Origin: Somniosus microcephalus | Lineage: Eukaryota | Direction of reading: 5' to 3' | DNA: 64,000 nt | Assembly (NCBI GenBank): GCA_052327205.1 | Contig: CM126204.1 | Coordinates: 323,268,001-323,332,000, forward strand | Shown: piece after piece, positions 5,248-60,527 of the stretch | Layout of the letters: each line of letters starts with the position of its first letter | Numbering within the stretch: position 1 is the first letter of the stretch | Program-made: the position numbers and the translations under genes | The notes under the pieces: generated by a model | The model's database searches: none | What the model was told of the DNA's origin: nothing | The model's input: only the letters and a program-made list of their open reading frames with translations

Positions 5248-7262
5248 ATTGTGTTTTGTTCAGTTTAGGAGTACAGGGCATATTTGGTCAGATGTACAAT
5301 ATATATGAAGAATGCTACTTTCTTTGTTGTTCAATGTGTATTCCTCTCCATTGTCATTTGTGGGTTGGTGTGCATAGGAACAGGAGGAGACCATTCAGCC
5401 CCTCGAGTCTGTTCTGCCATTCAATTAGATGGCTGATCTGTATCTTGGCTCCACCTACTGCCATCAATGGTTGTGGTTTGCATCTATTTTTTGTTTTAAT
5501 ATTCATCTGTAATTTTCTGATGGTCTTGTGATGTGTATGTGTCCTTTAAAGCTGGTAGTGTAGGAATGCACATTTGTTTATTTACTTCACTTGACTCGTA
5601 ATGGATACACCTCTCAGGTAATGAATGCATTCACTCTGTGATGGCCTAGTTTGGGTGTGAGCAGTGGGATAGAGTTCAACCTCTACTGATCTAATAGTTG
5701 TAAATTTTACTTATCTAGTGGCAATATTCATCTGATTCCTTGGCAGTCTCGGCAAGGGAGGGGGTTGGTGGCCGGGAGAGAGGGGAGGAGAGGGCACTAA
5801 TCTCTTTATTTATTTGAATTTCTAATTTTGAGGAAACAAATTCTGGCACTTCTGAATCCAAATTCTCATCCCTGACCCACGGTTATACATTAAGCACATT
5901 CTTCAATGCGGTATTCGTATGATACTCATTCATAAATCATCCTTTGTAATTCCATATAAAGTCAGTCCAGCAGCATGCTGTGCATGTAAATTTTTAAAGA
6001 GTTTCATTGAAGATGACATTTTAAATTTGACCAATTTCTATAAAATCTTGCTTTAATGATAGTGTGTCATATTGGCAAAATAAGAGCTGAATGAATGTGA
6101 AATGGGAAAAAAATGAAGCAGTATGTTTGAAATGTAACACTGGGCTACATTTTCCTCTGTGATAAAGTTTAATGAAAAGGTAGATGTGAATAAGTAGGTG
6201 AGCAAGACTGGTAATGTAGTTTACTTCTGTTGTTTCTCTACTAAGATTCTAGCACTATGCTAAAATGTGTTTGTGTAAAATTGCCCATGAAAAAAGAAAT
6301 TGCTTGTTAAGGAATTTTAAGTCTTTGTTATAGGGCAATCAAGACAAACTTAAGTTTGGCTCATAGTGAGACAAATGCAGAGATTGGGCTCATTACCCAC
6401 ATGTGAGGTGGTTTTGTTAATGAGAGGAAAGATTGCAAAGATTCACCAGAGTACTGGCAGAAGCGAATATTGCACTGCTTCCATGTCCCCACTGTGGGTA
6501 TGGCTGTTGCCAGTTATTCCATAATGCAACGGGAGAGGGAAAACAAGAGATAAAAAATGTCTCACCACTCACAGAACTAACAACCCCAGGGGATGGGTAT
6601 ACCACAACGGACACAGCTCCTTGGACCTCCTGAGGACTATAGATGATGATTATATTCTGAAGCAATCAAATGTGCCACAGCTCTTTGATGAAGAAGGAAA
6701 AGTCGGAGGGCTGCTTTTTTTTGATGGAAAAATGGAGCATTGGATGCAAATATGCCTGATTTCTCTGCACAACCTCTGTACCCTAGCAGAGATCAGATGT
6801 AACAATGCACATGTGCGAACTAAGACCCTCATAGAGCAAACATGTAGGGTGCTAAACAAACAATTCAGATAGGTTAGGGAAGGAACCTTACAATATTCCA
6901 CAATGAAGGTGGGCAAAACTGTTGCAGTGTGCTGCATGACCGTATAGCCATGGATAAATCCTTCACCGTGGATTAGGTTAGGAGCAGCAAAAAGGCATTG
7001 AATACAGAAACCATCAGAAGCAGGTGACTTTGCACTACTCTTTCTGTGCATCAGCTCCAGTGTAACTTGAGCCAGTACAAGATTAAGAACATTAAGAACA
7101 GAATGCATCGTATAGTACATTTGCTGTCACATAAATGCATTGGTATATGGTGCATGCACTCAAGCAGCAATATATGGGACTTTAATGCCTGTGGTTTCCA
7201 ACCCCAATCCATGCAGCTGACGTGGAGACATAACTTCCAGATTGTTCTTCGAATGGGTTGGT

Positions 7263-7340
7263 ATAAGAACATAAGAAATTAGGAGCAGGAGTAGGCCATT
7301 CGGCCCCTTGAGCCTGCTCCGCCATTCAATAAGATCATGG
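7263..7340 (-). mobile_element. CR1 LINE 3' tail fragment
   Basis: Reverse complement of the tail of the 19563-21357 element. A similar fragment lies at about 5373-5445. Confidence 0.7.
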
Positions 7341-7480
7341 TATCTTACTAGTACACTGTCATTGCAGCTTTATGGTGTTAAAGTGAGTGAAATATTTTAG
7401 AAAAGATGGTTTTAGAAAGTTTTTCAATTGGGAAGCCTAGTAGGTTAAATATGCAATGCCGACCATCATTTATGGGAGAT

Positions 7481-7699
7481 AACAACAGAAAATGCTGGAA
7501 AAACTCAGCAGGCCAGGCAACATCCGTGGAGAGGGAAACCGAGTCAACGTTTCAGGTCGAAGATCCTTCGTCAGGATGAAGGGTCTTCGACCTGAATCGT
7601 TGACTCGGTTTCCCTCTCCACGGATGTTGCCTGGCCTGCTGAGTTTTTCCAGCATTTTCTGTTGTTATTTCGGATTTCCAGCATCCGCAGTATTTTGCT
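7481..7699. mobile_element. Palindromic Penelope-pLTR-like retro-insertion with hammerhead core
   Basis: 92-bp inverted arms (3 mismatches, 2-nt loop) plus a short tail. Perfect 16-bp TSD atcatttatgggagat at 7465-7480 and 7700-7715. Confidence 0.7.
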
Positions 7700-7934
7700 A
7701 TCATTTATGGGAGATTCATGAGACCATGGGCAGTTCAGATATACAAATAGTTTGTAGCTCAGCTGCTAAATACACTTCCTGGTATCTTAATCAGCCATAC
7801 AGACCAAGAGGCAGTTTGCTCAGTGTGTCAAGTTAAGGAAAAAACTTTAACTTATAGTCCCATTCTAAAGGTCCCCAGCTTTTGTAAATTAATTCTCCTT
7901 TAAATTTGAATATAGATTGTACGCATAAATATAG

Positions 7935-13534: not shown

Positions 13535-15110
13535 AATGAGGAAGGCACAAGGGTCATGAGGGGAGATCGGAGAGAAACTGGAGAAAGATGTGTGTTCAGG
13601 GCTAGAGCAGGGGGGAACCTTAGAGGAAGTTTGGCCCAGTAGACTAGGGGAAGGAAGGACGTGGCAGAGGCAGCTGAACGGATGGTCTCAATCCTAGAGA
13701 CAAAGAAGTCCATGAGCTCCTCACACTTGTTATCGGAGGTGAGGGTGGCGGAGACAGGGGAGAGTGGTTTAAGAAGATGGTTAGCAGTAGAGAATAAGAG
13801 CCGGGGTTTATCTTTGTATTCCAGAATGATTCTGGAGCAGGGCCCGATAATGCTTTATGTGGTCCAGCCAGATTTGGCGGTGAATGGCTAAACCAGTTCA
13901 AGGCTGCGTCCCTTGGATTTGAGGGAGTGAAGATGAGGGCCGTATCAGGGGGAACGGCCAGGGTGAGAGAGAGTAAGGCCTAAAAATTCGGTTGCTTTGC
14001 TCCTCCTAAGAGGGCGCTAACAGGGTGTAAAGCAACGAGTGCCTGGGCGCAACGCCGCCAAAGCCTCCTGCGAAATTCAGTGGGAGGTTAGTGGCAGCGG
14101 TAACCGTTAGCGCCCTGTGGCGCTGCGCCGCCGGCGATAACGTCATCGCCGTGCACAGGGCCCCGCTAGCGCCCCGGCCGCAATCTTCGGTAGCATCCCT
14201 TGACTTACCGCCGGACGCTATGTCCGATGGGGTCAGGGGGGCCTACCTGCGGCCGGGGCGGCACTAATTCAAGGGAAGGTGCCGGGCGGCCATTTTTGTT
14301 GCTGGCCGCCTGCCAGCATCTGCCCCCTCTGCCGTCCCCGGCCTCCTGAGCAGTCCCCCCGCGGAGTGCCGGCTGCGCTCCGTGAGCCCGGCACTTCTCT
14401 TGAAAGCTGGGCTCCTTTGCCGGCACTCCGATCCCTGGTGGCCCAGCTGGGCCCCGGGTCGCGCTGCGCTAGGCCCCTCCCCTTTAATAAGGGGAGGAAG
14501 GCCTGCAGTACCGCAGCGTGACGTGCCGCTGCGGCATGTAGCACCGCGATATTCACTCACAGCGCCCCAAGAGAGAGGCGGGGCGCTTCCAGTAGCACTC
14601 CGCTTCCCTCTTGGGGCACTACCGGTGAATTTCGGCCGCGGGGATACTAATTTTTTCGGGAAAAGTAGCGCCCCAGCGAAGTTAGCGCCCCAAAGGGGGC
14701 ACGACTCAGTTTTTCCCCTTAAGTGTTTTAGTAGGGACTTGGGCATCAAAGGTGCTGGTGACGGTGTGGTTGAGCAGATTGGTAGCTGCAAAAATGTCAT
14801 GGTGAATGGAGGGCCAAAGGCTGGACAGTTAGGATTTCATAAGTGCAGTTGTAAGAGAGTTGGGAGAGAGTTTTTTCCAGGGGTGGACACAGAAGGAAGT
14901 AGGGTTGGGGGTGGATGGAAGGGGGATGTGGGTGGAGAGCGATACGAGGAAGTGGTCAGAGATGGCCTTATCTGCGATTGACACGATGGGAGTAGTGAGG
15001 CCATGAGAGATGGCAAGGTTGAGGGGGTGGCTGTGAATATGGGTTGGGGAGTTTACATGGAGGGAGAGATTAAGGGAGGATAGGAGACTAGTGAACTCAA
15101 ATTCAAAGGA
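13535..15110 (-). mobile_element. L2 LINE ORF2 fragment split by the insertion at 13977-14719
   Basis: Minus-strand MDFFVSRIETIRSAASA and pyrimidine-rich L2-like sequence that resumes after 14720. Confidence 0.7.
13977..14719. mobile_element. GC/CpG-rich Harbinger-like non-autonomous element
   Basis: taa|GGCCTAAAAATTCGG...TTTTTCCCCT|taa interrupts the L2. Repeated TAGCGCCC motifs. Confidence 0.6.
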
Positions 15111-19190: not shown

Positions 19191-22070
19191 GGGGGAAAAT
19201 TTGGTTGGTTTGCGCCTCCCATTAGCGCCTTAAGAGGGCGCTAATGGGGCACAATGCAACTAGCGCTCATGTGCGGTGATGTTTGCACCGCTCACGAAAT
19301 TGACCAGACATTTTGCGGCGGCACTAAACACTACCACCACGATCTCCTGCGCCCACAGATCGTGACGTCAGTCGAGCGTGCAATGCCCCGGTAGCGCCCC
19401 AGACCGGATATTGAGTGGCGCCCCCTGTCTTACCACCTGCCGCTAGCAACAACAGATTGAGGGGAGCGTTTTGCAGTCGGGAAGGGACTGGGGGAGCGCT
19501 ATTTAAAGGCGACCGCTTCCTGCCTTTTTTTGTCAGCGAAATTTTTGCACCATTCTGAGTGAGTGAGAGAGAGAGGGGAATCAGGGGAATTTATAATGGG
19601 GAACAAAGAAATGGCAGACCAACTAAATACATATTTTGGTTCTGTCTTCACAAAGGAGGACACAAATAACCTCCCAGAGATGCCGGGGAACATAGGGTCT
19701 GATGAAAGGGAGGAACTGAAAGAAATCAGTATTTGTAGGGAAATGGTGTTAGGGAAATTGATGGGATTGAAGGCCGATAAATCCCCAGGGCCTGATAATC
19801 TACATCCTAGGGTACTTAAGGAAGTGGCCCTAGAAATAGTAGATGCATTGCTAATCATCTTCCAACATTCGATGGAATCTGGAACAGTACCCATGGATTG
19901 GAGGGTAGCGAATGTTACCCCACTATTCAAAAAAGGTGGTGGAGAGAAAACGGGGAATTACAGACCGGTAAGCCTGACATCGGTAGTGGGGAAAATGCTA
20001 GAGTCCATTATAAAAGATGTAATAGCAGAGCACTTGGAAAATAGTGACAGGATCGGACAAAGTCAACATGGATTCACAAAAGGTAAATCGTGCTTGACTA
20101 ATCTACTGGAATTTTTTGAGGATGTAACTAGTAAAATAGATAAGGGAAAACCAGTGGATGTGGTGTATCTGGACTTTCAGAAGGCTTTCGATAAGGTCCC
20201 GCATAAGAGATTAGCGTGTAAAGTTAAGGCACATGGGATTGGGGGCAAGATATTGACTTGGATAGAGAACTGGTTGGCAGACAGAAAGCAAAGAGTTGGA
20301 ATAAACGGGTCCTTTTCCGAGTGGCAGGCAGTGACTAGTGGGGTACCGCAGGGATTGGTCCTTGGACCCCAGCTATTCACAATATATATTAATGATCTAG
20401 ACAAGGGAACTAGATGTAATATCTCCAAATTTGCAGACGACACAAAGCTGGGTTGGGCGTGTGTGCTGTGAGGAGAATGTCGAGAAACTGCAGGATGATT
20501 TGGACATGTTGGGTGATTGGGCAGAAACATGGCAGATGCAATATAACGTGGATAAATGTGAGGTTTTCCACTTGGTGGCAAAAACAGGAAGGCAGATTAT
20601 TATCTAAATGGCAATAGATTGGGAGAAGGGGAAGTGCAACGAGACCTGGGTGTTCTTGTGCACCAGTCACTGAAGGTAAGCATGCAGGTGCAGCAGGCGG
20701 TTAAGAAGGCAAATGGTATGTTGGCCTTCGTAGCGAGAGGGTTTGAGTACAGGAACAAGGATGTCTTGCTGCAGTTGTACAGGGCCTTGGTGAGACCACA
20801 TCTCGCGTATTGTGTGTAGTTTTGGTCGCCTTATCTGAGGAAGGATGTTCTTGCCATGGAAGGAGTTCAGCGAAGATTCACCAGGCTGATACCTGGGATG
20901 GCAGGAATGATGTCTGAGGAGAAATTGGGTCGATTGGGCTTGTACTCACTGGAGTTTAGAAGAATGAGAGGTGATTTCATTGAAACTTATAAAATTCTAA
21001 CAGGACTGGACAGACTAGATGCAGGAAGGATGTTCCCGATGGTCGGGGAGTCCAAAACCAGGGGACACAGTCTAAGGATAAAGGGTAGGCCATTTAGGAC
21101 AGAAATGAGGAGGAATTTCTTCACCCAGAGAGTGGTGAACCTGTGGAACTCTGTACCACAGAAGGCGGTGGAGGCCAGTTCATTAAATATATTCAAGAAG
21201 GAGTTGGATATATTTCTTAAGGCTAAAGGGATCAAGGGGTATGGGGAGAAAGCAGGGATCGGGTACTGAATTTGGATGATCAGCCATGATCGCATTGAAT
21301 GGCGGAGCAGGCTCAAGGGGCCGAATGGCCTACTCCTGCTCCTATCTTCTGTTTCTTTGAGAGATTACAGGAGATATTCAAAGCTGTGTTGAGGAGTTTT
21401 GGGTACTGAGCAGCACTTTGCAGGTTCTTTCTGATTTGATCTTCCTTGCATCGATTTAGAAGCGACTATGGGGGCTGCACTCTGAACTCTTTCCCTGGGC
21501 CTCTCCATTGTTCTTTCCAACAGATTTGATGTACAGGTCTCTCCAGGCTGAGATTCAAGGCTGCAATGAGCAGGGTGTGGATGGAAGCAAGATCGACCCT
21601 CCCCTTTAAGAACTGGCTGGCGCTAGTTTGCCTGTGTTCCATTGCTGACTGACATCACATGAGCTTCGCCAGCGCTCTGAGATAGCGCCTTGCTCCTCGG
21701 CCTTTGCGCCTTAAGAGAGGTGTGTAGCACCTGATTTAGCGCTCCAATCACCTCCAGGGGCGATACAAGCCAAGTTTGCAGTCAGAGGCAATAATTAGCA
21801 GCAGGCGCTAAACTTTGTGCCCGGCTGATAATTGCCGAATTTCTCCCCCATAGTATTGGATGGTCAAAGTATATAATCTAGGCTGACACTTAACCAGAAG
21901 AGGAAAGGAGGGAAGTACGAAAGCAGACCCTCACAACCACCATCTGCAGAAAATGAATGAGGGTGATAAAAGCCAAATTTGCAGTCGGAGGTGATAATTA
22001 GCGCCAGGCGCTGAACTTTTCGCCCGACCGATAATCGCACCCCAAACGGGGCGATACTGAATTTCTCCCC
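19191..22070. mobile_element. Harbinger-like TIR element(s) interrupting the old CR1
   Basis: Left end GGGGGAAAATTTGG, two right ends GAATTTCTCCCC at about 21848 and 22070, TAGCGCC motifs. Confidence 0.6.
19563..21357 (+). mobile_element. Young 5'-truncated CR1 LINE, RT domain with few lesions
   Basis: 302-aa ORF with [30 protein letters not shown] and FADD. Frameshifts near 20460 and 20570, stop at 20817, intact 3' UTR. Confidence 0.95.
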
Positions 22071-27616: not shown

Positions 27617-27662
27617 TAAGCATTCCATGTTGAAGGACAGCACAATCCAGGGGACTGTGAAG
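27617..27662 (+). CDS. RNF220: RNF220 internal coding exon (46 nt, phase 2/0), xKHSMLKDSTIQGTVK
   Basis: Acceptor ttatttcctgtttcttcaacag, donor AAG|gtaagt. Only one open frame, which aligns to human RNF220 SKNSLLKDAMAPGTPK (recalled) and joins in frame to the 45688 exon. Confidence 0.88.
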
Positions 27663-29080: not shown

Positions 29081-30635
29081 CAAATCAAAATCAAATCAAC
29101 TTTTATTGTCATTGTTAGTGCACAAGTGCAGTACAACGAAATGTAGGCTTGCGGCTCCCGAGAGTGTACATTTAGATTAAGACATTTAAACATTCAACAT
29201 ACATTTGGCTTGTAATACATTAACATAAACATAACCATAATAAAGTGCATTGGCAGATGTGCAGGCTTTAGAGTTTATTTGTGGAGTTCAGTAGGATGAC
29301 AGCCCTGGGAAAGAAGCTGTTCCTAAATCTGGTCGTACGGGTGCGAATGCATCTGTAGCGTCTCCCAGATGGCAGGAGGGCGAACAGACTGTGGCTGGGG
29401 TGGGTAGGGTCTTTGATGATGGACCGTGACCTCCGTAAACAGCGTTTCTGGTATATGTGCTCTATGGTCGGTAGCCGGGTGCCAGTAATGCGTTGGGCAG
29501 TTTTGACTACCCGCTGCAGGGCTTTCCGGTCATAGTAGCTACAGCTGCCATACCATACTGTGATACAGTTTGTCAGGATGCTCTCTATTGTGCAGCGGTA
29601 AAAGTTAGAGAGGATCAGGGGTGACAGGTTACATCCCTTCAGCCTCCTTAGGAAATATAGGCGCTGCTGGGCCTTCTTCACCAGAGAGGAGGTATTGAGG
29701 GACCAGGAGAGGTCTTCCGTGATGTGGACTCCGAGGAACTTAAAGCTGTCCACCCTTTCCACCACAGCCCCACTGATGTGGATGGGGGTGTGACTTCCGC
29801 CTTTAGACTTCCTGAAGTCCACAATGATTTCTTTGGTTTTCTTGATGTTAAGGGCCAGGTTGTTATCAGCGCACCACTTCACGAGATGCTGGACCTCCAC
29901 CCTGTAGGCTGACTCATCGTTGTTGGTGATCTGGCCTACTACCGTGGTATCATCCGCAAACTTGATGATGGTGTTGGAACCATGAACAGCCACACAGTCG
30001 TGGGTGAAGAGGGAGTAGAGGAGGGGGCTCAGCACACATCCTTGTGGGGCCCCCGTGTTCAGGGTCGGGGGGGGGGTGGGGAGGTGTGGTTACCTAATTT
30101 GACAGACTGGGGTCTGTTTGTTGGGAAGTCCAGGGTCCAGTTGCAGAGGGAAGTGTTCAGGCCAAGAGTTTGGAGTTTGGTGGCCAGCTTGTTGGGGACG
30201 ATAGTGTTGAATGCTGAGCTGTAGTCTATGAACAGCATTCTGATGTAGGTCTCCTTACCATCTAAGTGATTCAGTGCCGAGTGTAGAGCAGTTGTGATTG
30301 CATCCTCCGTTGATCTGTTTGCACGATAGGCAAACTGGTGTTGGTCAAGAGAGGCGGGAACACTGGCTTTGATGTGAGCCAGGACCAGTCTCTCGAAACA
30401 CTTCATTATGATGGGTGTGAGTGCGACAGGTCGATAGTCGTTCAGGCACGTCACAGCCGTTTGTTTTGGCACAGGAATAATGGTAGCGGTCTTGAAGCAT
30501 GTAGGGACTACTGCCTGGGCCAATGACAGATTGAAGATGGCGGTGAAGACATCAGCCAGCTGATCAGCACATTCCTTGAGTACCCGTCCAGGGATGCTAT
30601 CCGGTCCAGCAGCCTTTCGTGTGTTCACTCCGCGT
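29081..30635 (-). mobile_element. Rex1/Babar-clade LINE, 5'-truncated, nearly intact RT
   Basis: [58 protein letters not shown]. One frame break at the G-run near 30066-30081, then AATAAA and a (tttga)n tail. Confidence 0.92.
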
Positions 30636-32987
30636 ATCCAGCATTCACATGAAGGATTCTTTGCATCTGGTCACACCACAACATGGACATTAAGCGAGTG
30701 GTACCCCTTTCTGTTAAAAAAAAGTTGTATGGTCATCAGTAGGAGCTTGCAATGGTACATGGTTACCCACCTATTAAACCCTGGACTTTGGGAAACACAG
30801 CAATGCAATAAAACTGGATGGCACTATCATGCTGCTGCCCTGCTGATGTACCAAACCAGATGAGTTCCCTTGCTTTCCTAAGAAGTGTGCCGGTGACCAG
30901 ACAAATGCTTGGCAGTTTATCCCCTGGGCAATATTGCACAGATCCCCCCATGGCTGCTTGAAATGAACATGTGGCGTAAAGGTTGAGTGTGGGTGCCACT
31001 TTCACAACCACAGACAGGCAGATAATCCTGCCTGCAGGTCTTCATTTTTAGGTAGCATGTGCATGAAGGTATTTGTTAGTCATGATTGCTTTCAATGCAA
31101 GAAGAAAGTACTGAACCTCCATGACCAAATTACCAAAGAAAAGAGTTTTGGGGCCAAAAATAAAAATGGAAACTAGGTAGGGCAGTGGGTTAGAATATTG
31201 TCCATTCACCTCTGGCATCTCGATTGAATCCAATCTAAACTGATGGGATTTTAAAGTCTCCTCTCTCTGGCTGGGTATAAGGGCCTCACATGAAATGAAT
31301 TTGGGCAGCTTCACCCCAGTAATAGAATCATAGAATGATAGAATTTTATAGAAGGAGTCCTTTTGTGTTTGTGCCAGCTCTCTAGAAGTGCTATCCACTA
31401 GAAGCATAAGTCCAGAGCACAAAACTGCCCACAACCCTGTTCAGATTGGCACGAAACTTCACTCATAATGATAGGTGATATGTAAAAGGAAAACTCACGG
31501 TAGTGCAGAATGGACACTTTTCAAAGGTTGGTTTCAAGCACATTGTTGGGAAAAAGCAAGGGGAACTTTGCCATGCAGGTAGCCTACACAGTGGCAGCCC
31601 TGAGATTCATCAATACTGACACAAAAAAATTATAATTCCCCAGCATTGATAACTTTCACTTTAATAAGCACATAATTGACTAATAATTCACACATCCGAT
31701 ATTCTGGTGAGCCAGGTTGGGGCTGGGGGGGGGGGGGGAGGTGTTGTCCCTGGGTGCCTGGTTTTCATCTGCAGCCCGCCATCTCTATACTAACAATGCC
31801 CAACCCTCAAAATGGACCAGGTCTTCTGCCAGACGTACTGGCTGCCCTACGGTTACGCTCCGCAGGCTGACTGCCCGAACGCTACTGGGGAGGAGAATCT
31901 ACCCCAACGTTACTCTCGCCCATAAAACATTCAACAAGATAAAATATTAAAATAATGATGAACAAAATACAGTTTTCAAATGAATCACAAATGAACCCCA
32001 CTGAGCTCAGTCCACATGATGCCCATGGTCTGCCCTTAGTCCCAAAAGCTCTTCATTATTAAATTGTTATTTTCACACCGTCTATTCCTACTTGGCCTCC
32101 CCTGCTGAGATTAGCCCATATTTATGGAGAGTTATGTGTTCCAGATATGTTTAAAGAATATTTTCATTCCAGCTATCTGCCTTGGATTTTTCAGGTCCCA
32201 GAGATTAAAAGGTACAGTAATGCTAAAATCTACCGCAGGTTTCACTGCTCTAAGATGTGCAGCTGAATCCGAAAACTAGTTTTCTAAGAAATGTTACACT
32301 TGAATGAGGGTTTCTACAAATTGTGAATAAAAGGAAGCAATTGGTCAACTTCTATCCCACAGCCCACTTAACCATTTATTCAGCAATTCAATACGCAACA
32401 GGAAACTCTTAACAAAGGCATATGAGGAGATTTTTCTGTTTGCTGGGAGTTAATTATCGATAAATTGTGCCCCTCCAGCAAATGATTTCTCACCATAAAT
32501 TTTAATAGGTGGAAATTAATGGGCAGGTGGGCACAATTTCCAAACATGTGCTCCCAGTGTGTACTGAAGGAGAAAATCACCTTATGTTTTATTTTTTAAA
32601 AAGTGATTAGACTCTCAGGTAGAAATTTTTATTTTATGCCCAAACCAGGGCTCAACAGAAATTGGGCCTTAGGCATCATTTTAATAATACTGACGAACTG
32701 CCGGGCCCTGTTGCGCCTCCAGAGGCAGGTCATTGCTTTGCCGGGATCCAATTTGGGCCGTCTCCCTCTCTGGCAGCAACCTGCAGGTAAATCCAGGGCA
32801 GAGGGGGAGGCAAACAGGAGAGGGGCTAGCGCGAGCCGGTAGCAGCTCGCATAATAACGTGGAGGCGGGAGGAGCTCTCTGGACAGGAGGTTCCTCCTTC
32901 TCCTGTGCCACAACTAGCTGCACCTGCATGTTTGTGCTGTGTGTCTTACCCAGTGCAGTGCCCTCTAGTTCACTCTCCCTGGGCTTG

Positions 32988-33167
32988 NNNNNNNNNNNNN
33001 NNNNNNNNNNNNNNNNNNNNNNNNNNNNNNNNNNNNNNNNNNNNNNNNNNNNNNNNNNNNNNNNNNNNNNNNNNNNNNNNNNNNNNNNNNNNNNNNNNNN
33101 NNNNNNNNNNNNNNNNNNNNNNNNNNNNNNNNNNNNNNNNNNNNNNNNNNNNNNNNNNNNNNNNNNN
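32988..33167. other. Assembly gap (180 N)
   Basis: Run of N. Confidence 1.
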
Positions 33168-38759: not shown

Positions 38760-40364
38760 GGCCCGGAATTTGCGGTGGGTAATAACAGCGAACGAACAGC
38801 ATTCACTGCTATTACCCCTTTGAAACTGACAGCAACCTCAGGATTTAGCGCATGTGCATCCTAACGCAGAAATCCTGAAGTGATGGTCAGTCATTCACTG
38901 CTCCGACACTGGCTGCAGTGTGACCCGCCTTCCTCCCTCCCCCCACATATCTGGCAATCTGTGTATTCGGGAATTCAGTGAAACTGATGAAAACTTCAGC
39001 ATTTCCTCGGTAATTTTGCTGTTAAATACCCCATTAAATGTTAGGTCTTGTTGAATTAGGTGTATCTGGGATTTTAACAGCGTATTGACTGCTAAACAAA
39101 CATTATGGGGTCGATTTTCATGGAGCCGTCAGGCGGGGTTTCAGGCGTGTGGGGGGGGGGAATCCCGAATTTGGGGGTCCCGACACCAAAACCCCGCTCC
39201 ACGCAACTTTCAGAGGCGGCGGGTACCCGCCCCGCAATGGGACCCGCCGACCCCAGGCGGGAAGGGATTAGTGCCAATTAACTGCCTGTTAACAGGCAGT
39301 TTTTAGCCTAATCCCTATTTTGAGGGGTTTCGTGTGGGTTTCCCGATGGCTCCAAACCACACCAGGTTAGAGCAGGCGGGCCGTCGGGTTGGAGGGGTCG
39401 CGATGTCGGCGCTCAAGTGAGTGATGGGTGCATGAGTGCAAAGGTAAGTGTGTTTGGTGTGTCTAAAGTGTGTAAAGAACTTTTACTTACCTGTACTTAC
39501 CTTAACAGCCTTTCTTCCTGCAGGCGTCAGGAGCCCATCACTTGGCCGGCACTTAAAGCTGAATGGCTGCGATCTGTGAAAAGTGACAGCCTTCAGCTTT
39601 GAGTGCTGCTGAGAGTTCTAACTGAGTCTATGCAGAAGGACTCAGGTTGGAACTCAGACTGTCAGTGTTTCACAGCTTGAAACAGCTGTGAAACACTGAT
39701 ATTTCATCTGTCAAGAACTCTTGACAGATGAAATTGCAGTCTGTGACGTCACCTGTTGCCGGGTGGCCCTTAATTGGCCTGCTGAGCCCGCTGGGCGGGC
39801 TCAACAAGGTCAATCAAGGGAAAATCACGCGGATTGGCCGGATGTCGATGTAGGCGGGTCAAAAACCCGAAAGTTGTAGTCCCGCCTTCTTCCCGACAGC
39901 TTCGGGAAAATCGACCCCTATGACTCTGCAAAACAAATTTAAATTTTGTTGGGTGTCAAATTTTTCCATTTTAATAAAGAAATTATAATTTTTAAGAAAC
40001 TTTAAAAAAATTATCTATTTTAAAAGTGTGTTTATCTTTATTTCAGGTTTACTTTTTCCCCATGTGAGAGCCCCAATCTTTGCTTTGCTCTCTATAACAT
40101 TTTTAAAAAGTTAGAATCAAAGGAGCTTACTCACTTCCTGGTTCACTGTCGGTGAGAATTCTGCATTGTGATTGGTTGCTTAGACAGCTTGTTGACCTCA
40201 CAACAGCTCGCGCTATGGAATTCCCACTAAACGACACTGATCTCAACTGCATGTTGAAAAAGCCAAACTTCTCGCCACAGAGATCACGAGATCTTTGTGA
40301 GAAGCTTTCTTCGGGGCCGGCGGGCGAACGCCTTTGCTTCGCCACTGACTGCAAATTACGGGCA
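38760..40364. mobile_element. Harbinger-like non-autonomous element (outer)
   Basis: TIR GGCCCGGAATTTGC / GCAAATTACGGGCA, TSD aat/aat. Confidence 0.7.
39107..39918. mobile_element. Harbinger-like MITE nested in 38760-40364
   Basis: Perfect 13-bp TIR GGGGTCGATTTTC / GAAAATCGACCCC, TSD tat/tat. Confidence 0.82.
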
Positions 40365-45687: not shown

Positions 45688-45783
45688 TCTGTTCTGCTAT
45701 CAGCACCAATTAAAAGGGAAGGGGAATCTCCTACAGCGTCGCCTCTCTCTGCAGATGACACTCATCATTCAGACAGATACCAG
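45688..45783 (+). CDS. RNF220: RNF220 internal coding exon (96 nt, phase 0/0), SVLLSAPIKREGESPTASPLSADDTHHSDRYQ
   Basis: Polypyrimidine tract plus tacag, donor CAG|gtggga. Peptide matches human SLLLSASIKREGESPTASPHSSATDDLHHSDRYQ (recalled). Confidence 0.95.
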
Positions 45784-46391: not shown

Positions 46392-46495
46392 ATAAAAACA
46401 GAACATGCTGGAAATATTCAGCAGGTCAGGCAGCATCTGTGGCGAGAGAAACAGAGTTAACGTTTCAGGTCGATGGCCTTTCGTGAGAACTGGGA
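46392..46495 (-). mobile_element. Single-arm copy of the Penelope-pLTR-like repeat
   Basis: Homologous to the 7481 arm. Minus strand reads cagtt-CTCACGA-aaggccatcgacct-GAAAC-gtt-aact. Confidence 0.65.
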
Positions 46496-51494: not shown

Positions 51495-52921
51495 TGGAAG
51501 AACTAGCCGTGCCTCTAGCCAAACTGTTCCAGTACAGCTACAACACTGGCATCGACCTGACAAATTGAAAAATTGCCTAGGTACGTCCTATCCACAAAAA
51601 GCAGGACAAATCCAATCCAACCAATTACCGCCCCATTAGTTTACTCTCAATCATCAGCAAAGTGATGGAAGATATCGTCGACAGTGCTATCAAGTGGCAC
51701 TTAGTCACCAATAACCTGCTTACCGATGCTTAGTTTGGGTTCCACCAGGACCACTCGGCTTCAGATCTCATTGCAGCCTTGGTCCAAACATGGACAAAAG
51801 AGCTGAATTCCAGAGATGAGGTGAGAGTGACTGCCCTTGACATCGAGCATTTGACTGAGTCTGGCATCAAGGAGCCTTAGTAAAATTGAAATCAATGGGA
51901 ATCAGGGGGAAAACTCTCCACTGGCTGGAGTCCTACCTAGCACAAAGGAAGATGGTTGTGGTTGTTGGAGGTCAATCATCACAGGCCCAGGACATCGCTG
52001 CAGGAGTTCCTCAGGGCAGTGTCCTAGGCACCACCATCTTCATTAATGACCATCCCTCCATCATAAGGTCAGAAGTGGGGCTGTTTGCTGATGATTGCAG
52101 TGTTCAGTTCCATTCACAACTCCTCAGATAATGAAGCAGTCTGTGCCTGCATGCAGCAAGATCTGGACAACATTCAAGTAATATTCGTGCTACACAAGTG
52201 CCAGGCAATGACCATCTCCAACAAGAGAACGTCTAACCCATGACATTCAATGGCATTACCATCATCAAATCCCCCACCATCAACATCCTGGGGTCACCAT
52301 TGAGCAGAAATTTAACTGGACCAGCCACATAAATATTGTGGCTACAAGAGCATGTCAGAGGCTGGGTATTCTGCGGCAAGTGACTCACCTCCTGACTCCT
52401 CAAAGCCTTTCCACCATCTACAAGGCACAAGTCAGGAGTGTGATGGAATACTCTCTACTTGCCTGGATGAGCTCGACATCATCCAGGACAAAGCAGCCCG
52501 CTTGATTGGCACCCCATCTACCACCTTAAACATTCACTCCCTCCACCACCGGCGCACCGTGTACCATCCACAGGATGCACTGCAGCAACTCACCTAGGCT
52601 TCTTTGACAGCACCTCCCAAACCCACGACCTCTACTACCTAGAAGGACAAGGGCAGCAGGCGCATGGGAACACCATTACCTGCAAGTTCCCCTCCAAGTC
52701 ACACACCACCCTGACTTGGAAATATATTGCTGTTCCTTCTTCATCGCTGGGTCAAAATCCTGGAACTCCCTCCCTAACAGCACTGTGGGAGTGCCTTCAC
52801 CACACGGACTGCAGTGGTTCAAGAAGGCAGCTCACCACCAACTTCTCAAGGGCAATTAGGGATGGGCAATAAATGCTGGCTTTGCCAGCAATGCCCACAT
52901 CCTGTAAATGAATTTTAAAAA
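51495..52921 (+). mobile_element. CR1-group LINE, 5'-truncated, decayed RT
   Basis: NYRPISLLSIISKVME, AGVPQGSVLG and FADD motifs, complete 3' tail. Confidence 0.88.
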
Positions 52922-54724: not shown

Positions 54725-57653
54725 TAGGGCAGTGAATGAATCGCACTTAACTTCTGCAATTAATGGGTAGGTTTTTTGGAGATTCATTGTTCAAACAAGT
54801 GAATGAGGCCAGCACACTGCACCCACCATTTCACCCTGGACAGAATGACCATTCCCAGGACCTTAAAGCTTGAGTCTGTGCCTGCGCCCCCCTGTCATAA
54901 ACCCAAGTCGGTGCCTGCCCCCACCCTGCCATGGTCCGTGCCCACCCTCGTCAAGACCCGAGTCCGTACCCGCCCCCACCCCGGCACGGCCCGAGTCCGT
55001 GCCCGCCCCCACCCCCGTCACGGCCAGGTGCCTGCCTGACCCCACCCCTGCCAAGACCCGAGTCCGTGCCCACCCTCGTCAAGACCCGAGTCCGTGCCCA
55101 CCCTCGTCAAGACCCGAGTCCGTACCCACCCTCGCCCTGTCATGGCCCGAGTCCGTGCCCGCCCCCACCCTCACCCTGTCAATGGCCCGAGTCCGTGCCC
55201 GCCCCCACCCCCGTCACGGCCAAGTGCCTGCCTGACCCCACCCCTGTCAAGACCCGAGTCCGTGCCCATCCCTGTCAAGACCCAAGTCTGTGCCCACCCC
55301 TGTCACGGCCCGAATCCATTCCCGCCCCCACCCTGTCACGGCTGAGTCCCTGCCTGACCCCGCCCCCACCCCCGTCAAGACTCGAGTCCGTGCCCACCCC
55401 CACCCCCGTCAAAGCCCGAGTCCGTGCCCACCCCTCTCACGGCCCGAATCCATTCCCGCCCCCACCTTGTCACGGCTGAGTCCCTGCCTGACCCCGCCCC
55501 CACCCCCGTCAAGGCCCGAATCCGTGCCCACCCCGTCAAGGCCCATGTCTATGCCCGCCCCCACCCCAGTCATGGCCCGCGTCCGTGCCCACCCTCACCC
55601 CCGTCATGGCCCGTGTCCGTGCCCGCCTCCACCCCTGTCATGGCCCGAGTCTGTCCCCACCCCCGTCACGGCCGGAGTCCGTGCCCGCCCCCACCCCAGT
55701 CACGGCCCATGTCCGTGCCCACCCTCACCCCCGTCACGGCCCGTGCCTGCCTCCACCCCTGTCATGGCCCGAGTCTGTGCCCGCCCCCAGCCCCGTCATG
55801 GCCCGAGCCCGTGCCCGCCCCCAGCCCCGTCATGGCCCGAGCCCGTGCCCGCCCCCAGCCCCGTCATGGCCCGAGTCTGTGCCCGCCCCCAGCCCCGTCA
55901 CGGCCCGAGTCCGTGCCCGCCCCCAGCCCCGTCACGGCCCGAGTCCGTGCCCGCCCCCAGCCCCGTCACGGCCCGAGTCCATGCCCGCCCCCAGCCCCGT
56001 CACGGCCCGAGTCCGTGCCCGCCCCCAGCCCCGTCACGGCCCGAGTCCGTGCCCGCCCCCAGCCCCGTCACGGCCCGAGTCCGTGCCCGCCCCCCGTCAC
56101 GGCCCGAGTCCGTGCCCGCCCCCAGCCCCGTCACGGCCCGAGTCCGTGCCCGCCCCCAGCCCCGTCACGGCCCGAGTCCGTGCCAGCCCCGTCACGGCCC
56201 GAGTCCGTGCCCGCCCCGTCGCGGCCCGAGTCCGTGCCCGCCCCGTCGCGGCCCGAGTCCGTGCCCGCCCCGTCGCGGCCCGAGTCCGTGCCCGCCCCGT
56301 CGCGGCCCGAGTCCGTGCCCGCCCCGTCGCGGCCCGAGTCCGTGCCCGCCCCGTCGCGGCCCGAGTCCGTGCCCGCCCCGTCGCGGCCCGAGTCCGTGCC
56401 CGCCCCGTCGCGGCCCGAGTCCGTGCCCGCCCCGTCGCGGCCCGAGTCCGTGCCCGCCCCGTCGCGGCCCGAGTCCGTGCCCGCCCCGTCGCGGCCCGAG
56501 TCCGTGCCCGCCCCGTCGCGGCCCGAGTCCGTGCCCGCCCCGTCGCGGCCCGAGTCCGTGCCCGCCCCGTCGCGGCCCGAGTCCGTGCCCGCCCCGTCGC
56601 GGCCCGAGTCCGTGCCCGCCCCGTCGCGGCCCGAGTCCGTGCCCGCCCCGTCGCGGCCCGAGTCCGTGCCCGCCCCGTCGCGGCCCGAGTCCGTGCCCGC
56701 CACGGCCCGAGCCCGTTCACGGCCCGAGCCCGTGCCCCCCCCGTCACGGCCCGAGCCCGCGCCCGCCCCGTCACGGCCCGAGCCCGCGCCCGCCCCGTCA
56801 CGGCCCGAGCCCGCCCCGTCACGGCCCGTGCCCGCCCCGTCACGGCCCGAGCCCGTGCCCGCCCCCGCCCCGTCACGGCCCGAGCCCGCCCCCGCCCCGT
56901 CACGGCCCGAGCCCGCCCCCGCCCCGTCACGGCCCGTGCCCGCCCCGTCACGGCCCGTGCCCGCCCCCGTCACGGCCCGTGCCCGCCCCCGTCACGGCCC
57001 GCGCCCGCCCCCGTCACGGCCCGCGCCCGCCCCGTCACGGCCCGCGCCCGCCCCGTCACGGCCCGAGTCCGCGCCCGCCCCGTCACGGCCCGAGTCCGCG
57101 CCCGCCCCGTCACGGCCCGAGTCCGCGCCCGCCCCGTCACGGCCCGAGTCCGCGCCCGCCCCGTCACGGCCCGAGTCCGCGCCCGCCCCGTCACGGCCCG
57201 AGTCCGCGCCCGCCCCGTCACGGCCCGAGTCCGCGCCCGCCCCGTCACGGCCCGAGCCCGCGCCCGCCCCCAGCCCCGTCACGGCCCGAGCCCGCGCCCG
57301 CCCCCAGCCCCGTCACGGCCCGAGCCCTCGCCCGCCCCCAGCCCCGTCACGGCCCGAGCCCGTGCCCGCCCCCAGCCCCGTCACGGCTCGAGTTCGTATC
57401 CCCCAACTACAAAATTTCCTGAACAAGTTCCATTTATTTTTCTGTTGCTTTTCCAGAAATAGAAAAATAGGAAAAAAGGATTTATAGTCTGGGTTGGTTT
57501 TTGGATGATAACAGCATCAATAATAATATAAACTTGAATAAGATGGTTGTAATTGTATCAATTAAATTTGCGATTAAAACCAAGATTAACAGATAAAAAA
57601 ATTTAATTGTGGGATTAATTGCGATTAATAATTTTTACTGGCTTTCAGCCCTA
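54725..57653. mobile_element. hAT-type non-autonomous element enclosing the minisatellite
   Basis: Termini TAGGGCAG...CAGCCCTA, subterminal gcgattaa motifs, 8-bp TSD gtgggtac/ttgggtac (7/8). Confidence 0.72.
54870..57395. repeat. GC/CpG-rich minisatellite with 27- and 34-bp units
   Basis: 18 perfect 27-mers (gtcgcggcccgagtccgtgcccgcccc) from 56218 to about 56700, 34-mers at about 55770-56170, a second 27-mer variant at about 57050-57245, degenerate edges. Confidence 0.97.
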
Positions 57654-60323: not shown

Positions 60324-60527
60324 AAAAGCAAAATACTGTACACGCTGCAATAAAAACTGAAAATGCTGGGAACACTCAGCAGACCAGGCAGCATCTGTGG
60401 AGGGAGGACGGCAGGGTTAATGTCTCACAAAGAAAGGGCACCGACCTAAAACGTTAACCTTGTCTGCCTCTCTCCACAGATGCTGCCTGACTTACTGAGT
60501 GTTTCTGGCATTTTCTGTGTTTATTTC
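60324..60527. mobile_element. Older palindromic Penelope-pLTR-like insertion
   Basis: Inverted arms at about 60349-60420 and 60454-60525, 13-bp TSD agtgtattgaata/agtgtatggaata. Confidence 0.68.

Follow-up and report, generated by a model that had tools for sequence, protein, structure and literature searches.

The insertion at positions 7481-7699 of the 64,000-nucleotide stretch of Somniosus microcephalus DNA analysed here (the window) is best explained as a short Penelope-like element (PLE) insertion, in which both target strands would have primed reverse transcription on an uncleaved pLTR RNA and for which no self-cleavage is predicted. We give this explanation as a whole a probability of about 0.8. 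Its firmest part is the PLE origin, which is very probable by analogy: the anatomy of this locus (insertion A) matches that of published PLE insertions, and A is likely the shortest form of such an insertion. The evidence for identity comes from three loci, insertion A and its relatives B and C in the same window.

Insertion A comprises 219 bp between two identical 16-mers, which a repeat search placed at 7465-7480 and 7700-7715 of the plus strand with 100% identity (16 of 16 bases; chance at a given place 5e-10). The left arm, 7481-7574, is a tailless copy of the repeat unit with its sense on the minus strand; the right arm, 7575-7666, has its sense on the strand of the host gene RNF220a (plus). 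Over 7481-7572 and 7575-7666 the arms are head-to-head reverse complements of 92 bp with 3 mismatches (97% identity), and the inverted repeat runs 5 nt further into the left TSD, to 7476. There is no ORF between the arms. A tail of 33 nt, 7667-7699, is found on the right arm only and holds a 5-bp stem-loop at 7671-7687. The arms with their three mismatches, the perfect TSD and the one-sided tail had all been described in the original prediction, and each is confirmed. The mismatches are T.T at 7550/7597, T.G at 7564/7583 and G.T at 7570/7577. It had also been claimed that two of them become G-U pairs in RNA; this is correct for 7564/7583 and 7570/7577 solely in plus-strand RNA, and on the minus strand they are A.C.

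The two unpaired central bases, 7573-7574, belong to the left arm, and the first base of the right arm is G5 of the hammerhead core. The inversion junction is the dinucleotide GA at 7575-7576, as located from the sequence and a stem I count of 2. In the right-arm core these two bases are G5-A6, and for the left arm they can also be read as its two stem I bases; we infer that the dinucleotide is a candidate microhomology, and these 2 nt may carry the left arm to 7576. In the template RNA, the 5 nt that open the tail could pair with the closing 5 nt of the left TSD, one of the pairs being G.U. A 10-nt direct repeat is found at 7646-7655 and 7675-7684; the first copy stops 11 nt short of the arm end and the second 15 nt short of the tail end. 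Both copies sit in small stem-loops, the first of which is kept in relative B and in the left arm of relative C, and the repeat with its stem-loops is a candidate signal marking both reverse transcription start sites. The positions of stem-loops in A were taken from the hairpin list of a sigma-70 scan, whose promoter output is irrelevant to this host.

Alignment within the window identified both relatives. Relative B is a single tailless arm on the minus strand at 46392-46494, about 84-86% identical to the arms of A (85-86% over 79 shared columns) and flanked by a candidate duplication (46380-46391/46495-46506, 10 of 12 bases). B is antisense to RNF220a and follows an exon of that gene at a distance of about 600 bp. 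Relative C, at 60324-60527, is an older head-to-head palindrome with arms about 75% alike, an asymmetric junction and a 13-bp duplication (60311-60323/60528-60540, 12 of 13 bases). Its tail is on the left, homologous to that of A and 8 nt shorter. A profile from the five arms gave no further copy in the window except for one weak candidate, at 26.8 kb (E 0.38). Extrapolated from this one window, three loci in 64 kb, or one in every 20 kb, would mean that the family is very abundant. A 46-bp imperfect palindrome at 39695-39740 (87%) is unrelated to the arm family by BLAST.

The ends of the five arms fall on two shared positions, the arm end in 3 of 5 and the tail end in 2 of 5. Relative to the predicted cleavage site, the arms start about 29-31, 27, 36-41, 9 and 27 nt upstream, and none of the five starts exactly at it. 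Across 79 columns, 7 private variants are common to both arms of A and 3 to both arms of C, and none is common across loci in 4 cross-locus pairs. These observations bear on whether the palindrome itself could be the mobile unit, that is, a non-autonomous hairpin element that PLE machinery copies whole from a palindromic master. Two of the three loci are palindromic, of the same design, and they are the only long inverted repeats in the window. However, the junctions of A and C differ, the private variants are specific to each locus, B has one arm and a candidate duplication of its own, and the tail sits on an arm of different length in A and in C. We therefore regard copying from a palindromic master as improbable.

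It is less probable still that the palindrome is a fold-back artefact of assembly or library construction. All 3 mismatches between the arms of A lie in the innermost 23 of the 92 pairs, where hairpin reads err, and this would suit an artefact. The perfect 16-bp duplication, the homology of the tail with that of C, and the independent occurrence of C, an older palindrome flanked by a separate duplication, led us to reject this explanation, the least probable of those considered.

A minimal type I hammerhead motif was located on the minus strand of the left arm, at 7574-7546, by a descriptor search and by comparison with the published consensus. It reads CUGACGA-A-GGAUC-UUC-GACCU-GAAA-C-G-U-U. 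The CUGACGA box (7574-7568) is followed by an extra A (7567) and by stem II (7566-7562/7558-7554), and the 3' half consists of GAAA (7553-7550) and C-G-U-U (7549-7546), with predicted cleavage after 7546. Four of the 5 pairs of stem II form, one position being A.C, and the closing pair is G-U, not the usual G-C. A palindromic loopless helix III is present as ACGU at 7550-7547 of the minus strand. Stem I has 2 bp, below the 3-5 bp of minimal type I hammerheads. The boxes and stems are those of the original prediction, which had extended the motif over 7541-7574; its span needs correction, since it ends at 7546. The motif fits the minimal-hammerhead consensus of PLEs presented in PMC4209133, in whose supplement C-G-U-U/C is the commonest helix III row. 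According to the same source, minimal hammerheads sit in PLE pLTRs; most occur in truncated, scattered copies, and some form pairs on opposite strands.

The bare two-box motif on its own is not significant, because its 2 matches in the window (0.80 expected) are reached in 21 of 100 shuffles. Once stem II and the self-complementary ACGU are included, the full descriptor has one match in 64 kb, at minus 7574-7546; it matched in 2 of 300 shuffles of the window, and shuffling the 125-nt unit 100000 times produced no match. This descriptor was drafted from the supplement of PMC4209133 once the site was known. The original prediction had proposed a check with hammerhead covariance models, and this was negative: Rfam gave no hammerhead match at the site (E up to 10) or in the window (gathering scores). 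At gathering scores the window had no Rfam match of any kind. The site had 6 weak matches (plastid psbJ, mir-4667 and others), all below gathering, and the top three of these are generic hairpin matches.

The CUGANGA and GAAA boxes with NUH are complete in one of the five arms of the window, the left arm of A. The right-arm core (7575-7601, plus strand) is dead by alignment and core comparison: C3 and U4 are missing and GAAA has become GAAU at 7597 (A15.1 to U), with all 5 pairs of stem II retained. Relative B keeps a stem I of 4 bp, and its core reads CUCACGA (a G5-to-C change). A complete core together with stem I is present in none of the copies in the window. In the alignment of 4 cores, pairing is kept in 85% of stem II cells, the closing pair is G-U or A-U rather than G-C, and one stem I position is altered on both sides. 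Covariation on these 4 rows, an underpowered sample, was not above that of shuffles (181-500 of 500 shuffles reach it). Single-strand folds of the isolated motifs gave no hammerhead fold for the left arm of A or the right arm of C, and dimer folds gave no hammerhead dimer, a result uninformative for helices so short. From the sequence, self-cleavage of insertion A is predicted to be absent on both strands. Doubt about cleavage had already been expressed in the original prediction, and it deserves strengthening, as the only complete core lies antisense to RNF220a and that of the plus strand is dead. An active ribozyme in RNF220a pre-mRNA was rejected on the loss of C3 and U4, the A15.1 to U change and the locking of the core in the hairpin.

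The hammerhead boxes would be coincidental if insertion A were a MITE of a DNA transposon (DDE) with its arms as TIRs. The insertion is indeed short, non-coding, palindromic and flanked by a duplication, and it lacks an Rfam hammerhead match. DDE transposons have a fixed TSD length. The duplications of this family vary (16 bp in A, 13 bp in C and about 7-12 bp in B), one terminus of A is a 33-nt tail and not a TIR, a single-arm copy exists, and none of the shuffled units matched the full descriptor. Frogs are known to have palindromic Harbinger MITEs (PMC5625713), but the tail at one terminus and the varying TSD lengths largely refute such an origin here. We rejected it as very improbable.

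In published descriptions, PLE insertions carry an inverted 5' pLTR in head-to-head arrangement, a tail of 30-40 nt at one end only and duplications of 8-10 bp; the tail is optional, and solo pLTRs occur (PMC3846280, PMC8557442). The tail of A, at 33 nt and at one end, is inside this range. The original prediction of a PLE-derived element thus stands on anatomy (inverted pLTR, one-sided tail, variable TSD and minimal hammerhead), whereas the linkage to RT or GIY-YIG ORFs was not found. Pfam searches of 372 window ORFs gave no GIY-YIG domain and no PLE RT linked to the unit. These comprised 150 of the 218 ORFs of at least 38 aa in 1-16 kb, namely those starting before 11.1 kb, and 222 ORFs of at least 62 aa from 11 kb on, excluding N-containing ORFs and those of the 54.8-57.5-kb repeat. 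RVT_1 was matched by 4 window ORFs only, at 19.6, 29.3, 30.1 and 51.9 kb, none of which adjoins an arm and which we take to be LINE-type. The broken retrotransposon ORFs with RVT_1 occupy 19563-21269, 29268-30670 and 51859-52128, and the one at 29.3 kb additionally matches PF09004. A repeat fragment near insertion A, at 7264-7340, has 3 more copies at 5375, 21284 and 61578 (84-94%), the one at 21.3 kb lying next to a LINE fragment with an RT; the repeat is probably a CR1-type 3' end or a partner SINE.

Translation of the insertion revealed a stop-free frame of 41 codons (7576-7698, plus strand), opened by an ATG inside the core, which is possibly the start of the ORF of a parent PLE. The frame is stop-free in all 3 arms translated, two of which are not independent, and the other two frames hold stops. 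Among 1.84 billion protein representatives it had one match, P0002, a short singleton of 76 aa that is 59% identical, keeps the 41-codon frame and looks like another copy of the repeat read through. The protein searches found no long homologue (0 of 6 longer candidates) and no near candidate. Because PLE ORFs start within the pLTR (PMC11167929, PMC3846280), the stop-free frame and the database match are suggestive of such a start. The unit may be either a separate non-autonomous family or a short 5' (abortive) product of the pLTR of an autonomous PLE. One prokaryotic genome scan contained 0 stray copies of the unit, with none in plasmids; a single match in another prokaryotic scan was treated as chance, as it had by eye no similarity beyond the pattern.

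How the two arms arose can be approached from the lizard PLE described in PMC11167929. Its protein cleaves and extends both target strands in vitro, and two internal start sites are used on an RNA that remains uncleaved, the spacing between them equalling the genomic tail. Its ORF starts in the ribozyme, and the protein-assisted ribozyme is dispensable for insertion in vitro. By analogy, both target strands rather probably primed reverse transcription at insertion A. A PLE GIY-YIG endonuclease, supplied by an autonomous copy elsewhere, would nick the strands 16 bp apart in AT-rich DNA. Priming by the top-strand end would take place where the arms end (7481/7666), the proximal RNA site, and the bottom-strand end would use a distal site at the tail end (7699), 33 nt farther along. 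Both cDNAs would pass the predicted cleavage site and stop in the 5' (CUGA) box of the ribozyme, and they would then be joined via the 2-nt GA overlap at 7575-7576, followed by fill-in. On this model, each locus would form its own palindrome anew on insertion, and the palindrome is probably not the mobile unit. The private variants shared by the two arms of a locus could also stem from arm homogenisation.

The main rival retains the PLE origin and has the second arm made by self-priming (fold-back) at a small palindrome near the ribozyme. Self-priming on an antisense template has been proposed for the head-to-head junction palindromes of rotifer Penelope (PMC3846280), the junction of A lies in a hairpin-rich region, and the arms are 97% identical. 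However, the central 2 nt of A follow the orientation of the tailless arm and the tail sits on the other arm. Self-priming from the tailless arm could not supply the tail, and from the cDNA of the tailed arm the central 2 nt would face the other way, so that neither arm alone templates the whole by simple fold-back. Moreover, the possible priming stem is just 2 bp with a 2-nt loop, and the extension of both target strands by the lizard protein (PMC11167929) favours two primers. We consider self-priming unlikely. The two-strand reading of the junction is based on 2 nt and on a presumed subfamily sequence.

Within two-strand priming, we also considered that the hammerhead mainly serves to pair two pLTR RNAs via ACGU in a dimeric RT-endonuclease and not to cut. 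Each target strand would copy its own RNA, and both cDNAs would stall at the paired cores and join there. This role is quite unlikely in our estimate, and its consequences would be broad. Head-to-head palindromes would be a routine product of an abundant chondrichthyan family and their junctions a genome-wide footprint of the PLE mechanism. Hairpins of 90 bp would be seeded in the introns of sharks and rays and could be a main substrate of A-to-I editing, and the three arm differences in the ribozyme region would reflect two template RNAs.

The age of insertion A was estimated from the arm mismatches. Three differences in 92 bp correspond to 1.6% per arm (Poisson range 0.6-8.8 for the count). 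At a shark mutation rate of 7e-10 per base per generation (PMC10587355), this gives about 2e7 generations. Judged by its sequence, A is much younger than C. The claim that the element was recently mobile is accordingly supported only relative to its neighbours. The clustering of the 3 mismatches in the innermost pairs, inside the ribozyme region (7549-7574/7575-7598), has a post hoc P of about 0.014-0.02. The outer 69 pairs and the 16-bp TSD show no difference at all, which counts against an age as high as that estimated. CpG decay may explain one of the inner mismatches; errors of the RT or of the reads, homogenisation of the arms, or copying from two template RNAs are further possible causes.

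Three consecutive RNF220a coding exons on the plus strand were identified by tblastn among the matches listed, at 27618-27662 (the nearest downstream of A), at 45688-45783 and from 53959. The exon at 45688-45783, also found by protein search, is 91-97% identical to chondrichthyan RNF220a and 76-88% to that of bony vertebrates (95 matches among 98 candidates), and 32 of 32 residues match two sharks by tblastn. Among the same matches listed, the preceding coding exon was not found in the window. Since the exons lie downstream on the plus strand and the preceding one is outside the window, insertion A is likely in an RNF220a intron. Elsewhere in the window, an RNF220a intron contains a GC-rich 27/54-bp minisatellite of about 2.5 kb (54941-57397) that is open in several frames. 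In a GC-rich stretch at 14200-14980, either strand has long open frames, none with a Pfam match; the stretch may be a repeat or an island around an internal promoter. An assembly gap of 180 N spans 32988-33167.

Insertion A folds with -195.8 kcal/mol on the plus strand and -184.2 kcal/mol on the minus strand (z about -28 and -26), and none of 200 shuffles was as stable. In the model, the plus-strand transcript carries the dead right-arm core, and the hairpin on either strand would sequester the core. The exon matches confirm the host gene named in the earlier claim of a dsRNA of about 90 bp in RNF220 pre-mRNA, and place it on the plus strand; the hairpin itself is a prediction. The 92-bp hairpin would likely be a passive ADAR substrate in RNF220a pre-mRNA. 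Heavy editing of frog palindromic repeats and lizard Penelope, and about 200,000 edited sites in elephant-shark brain, are reported in PMC5625713.

The architecture and the ribozyme class found here are already described in other animals. In the literature searched, a description of the hammerhead of this family in cartilaginous fishes was not found; Repbase and Dfam, which were outside the search, probably hold the repeat. Retrozymes have been reported in one chondrichthyan (bioRxiv 10.64898/2026.07.22.740005). The single locus is of small weight, being one copy, if a well-preserved one, of a dispersed repeat whose PLE architecture is known, and its value is that of a clean test case for the PLE mechanism. 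The origin of PLE inverted repeats and tails and the role of the weak hammerheads are stated as open questions in PMC8557442, PMC11167929 and PMC3846280. In very short copies with intact TSDs, the priming sites and the inversion junction can be read directly, so that a count of such copies across the genome could tell two-strand priming apart from self-priming.

Insertion A resembles the products of L1 twin priming, in which both target strands prime and a TSD and an inversion junction with microhomology are formed. In L1 inversions, however, the template is split into two non-overlapping parts, whereas in A one stretch is copied twice and there is no poly(A). With the EN+ PLEs (Penelope/Poseidon and Neptune) described in PMC3846280 and PMC8557442, the family shares head-to-head repeats, the 30-40-nt tail at one end, a variable short TSD, solo pLTR copies and possibly a pLTR with an ORF start. 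Insertion A differs from them in having no ORF between the repeats and in its TSD of 16 bp against 8-10 bp, and its arms are just 92-96 nt compared with 181-218 bp for rotifer pLTRs. Partial-tandem (direct pLTR-ORF-pLTR) copies of the unit number zero in the 64-kb window.

The motif shares with the minimal PLE hammerheads of PMC4209133 the CUGANGA box with an extra nucleotide, a 5-bp stem II, a short stem I and the loopless palindromic helix III in GAAA-C-G-U-U, and opposite-strand motif pairs like that of insertion A are described there for Schistosoma. In contrast to the highly conserved G10.1-C11.1 of that source, the closing pair is G-U in A and A-U in its relatives. The copy in A is damaged, and none of the Fig. 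S3 rows examined is chondrichthyan. Animal non-LTR retrozymes (PMC7229834, bioRxiv 10.64898/2026.07.22.740005) are likewise non-coding, with a type I hammerhead and a link to PLE pLTRs. Retrozymes form head-to-tail tandems that are cleaved to circles (PMC7229834), whereas insertion A is head-to-head, dispersed, probably intronic and apparently a copy of uncleaved RNA. A non-LTR retrozyme tandem was rejected, as no head-to-tail tandem of the unit was found.

The Anolis Poseidon element PAc (PMC11167929) was studied with its protein in vitro, whereas insertion A is known from its sequence, with no protein. As described there, the start sites of PAc lie in an AC-rich stem-loop and its priming is non-homologous; the ends of A are U-rich, and 5 target nt could pair at the proximal site. 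In both, the ribozyme is followed about 90-125 nt on by two start sites (putative in A) bracketing the tail, the template appears to be uncleaved, and the target is AT-rich with ATT.
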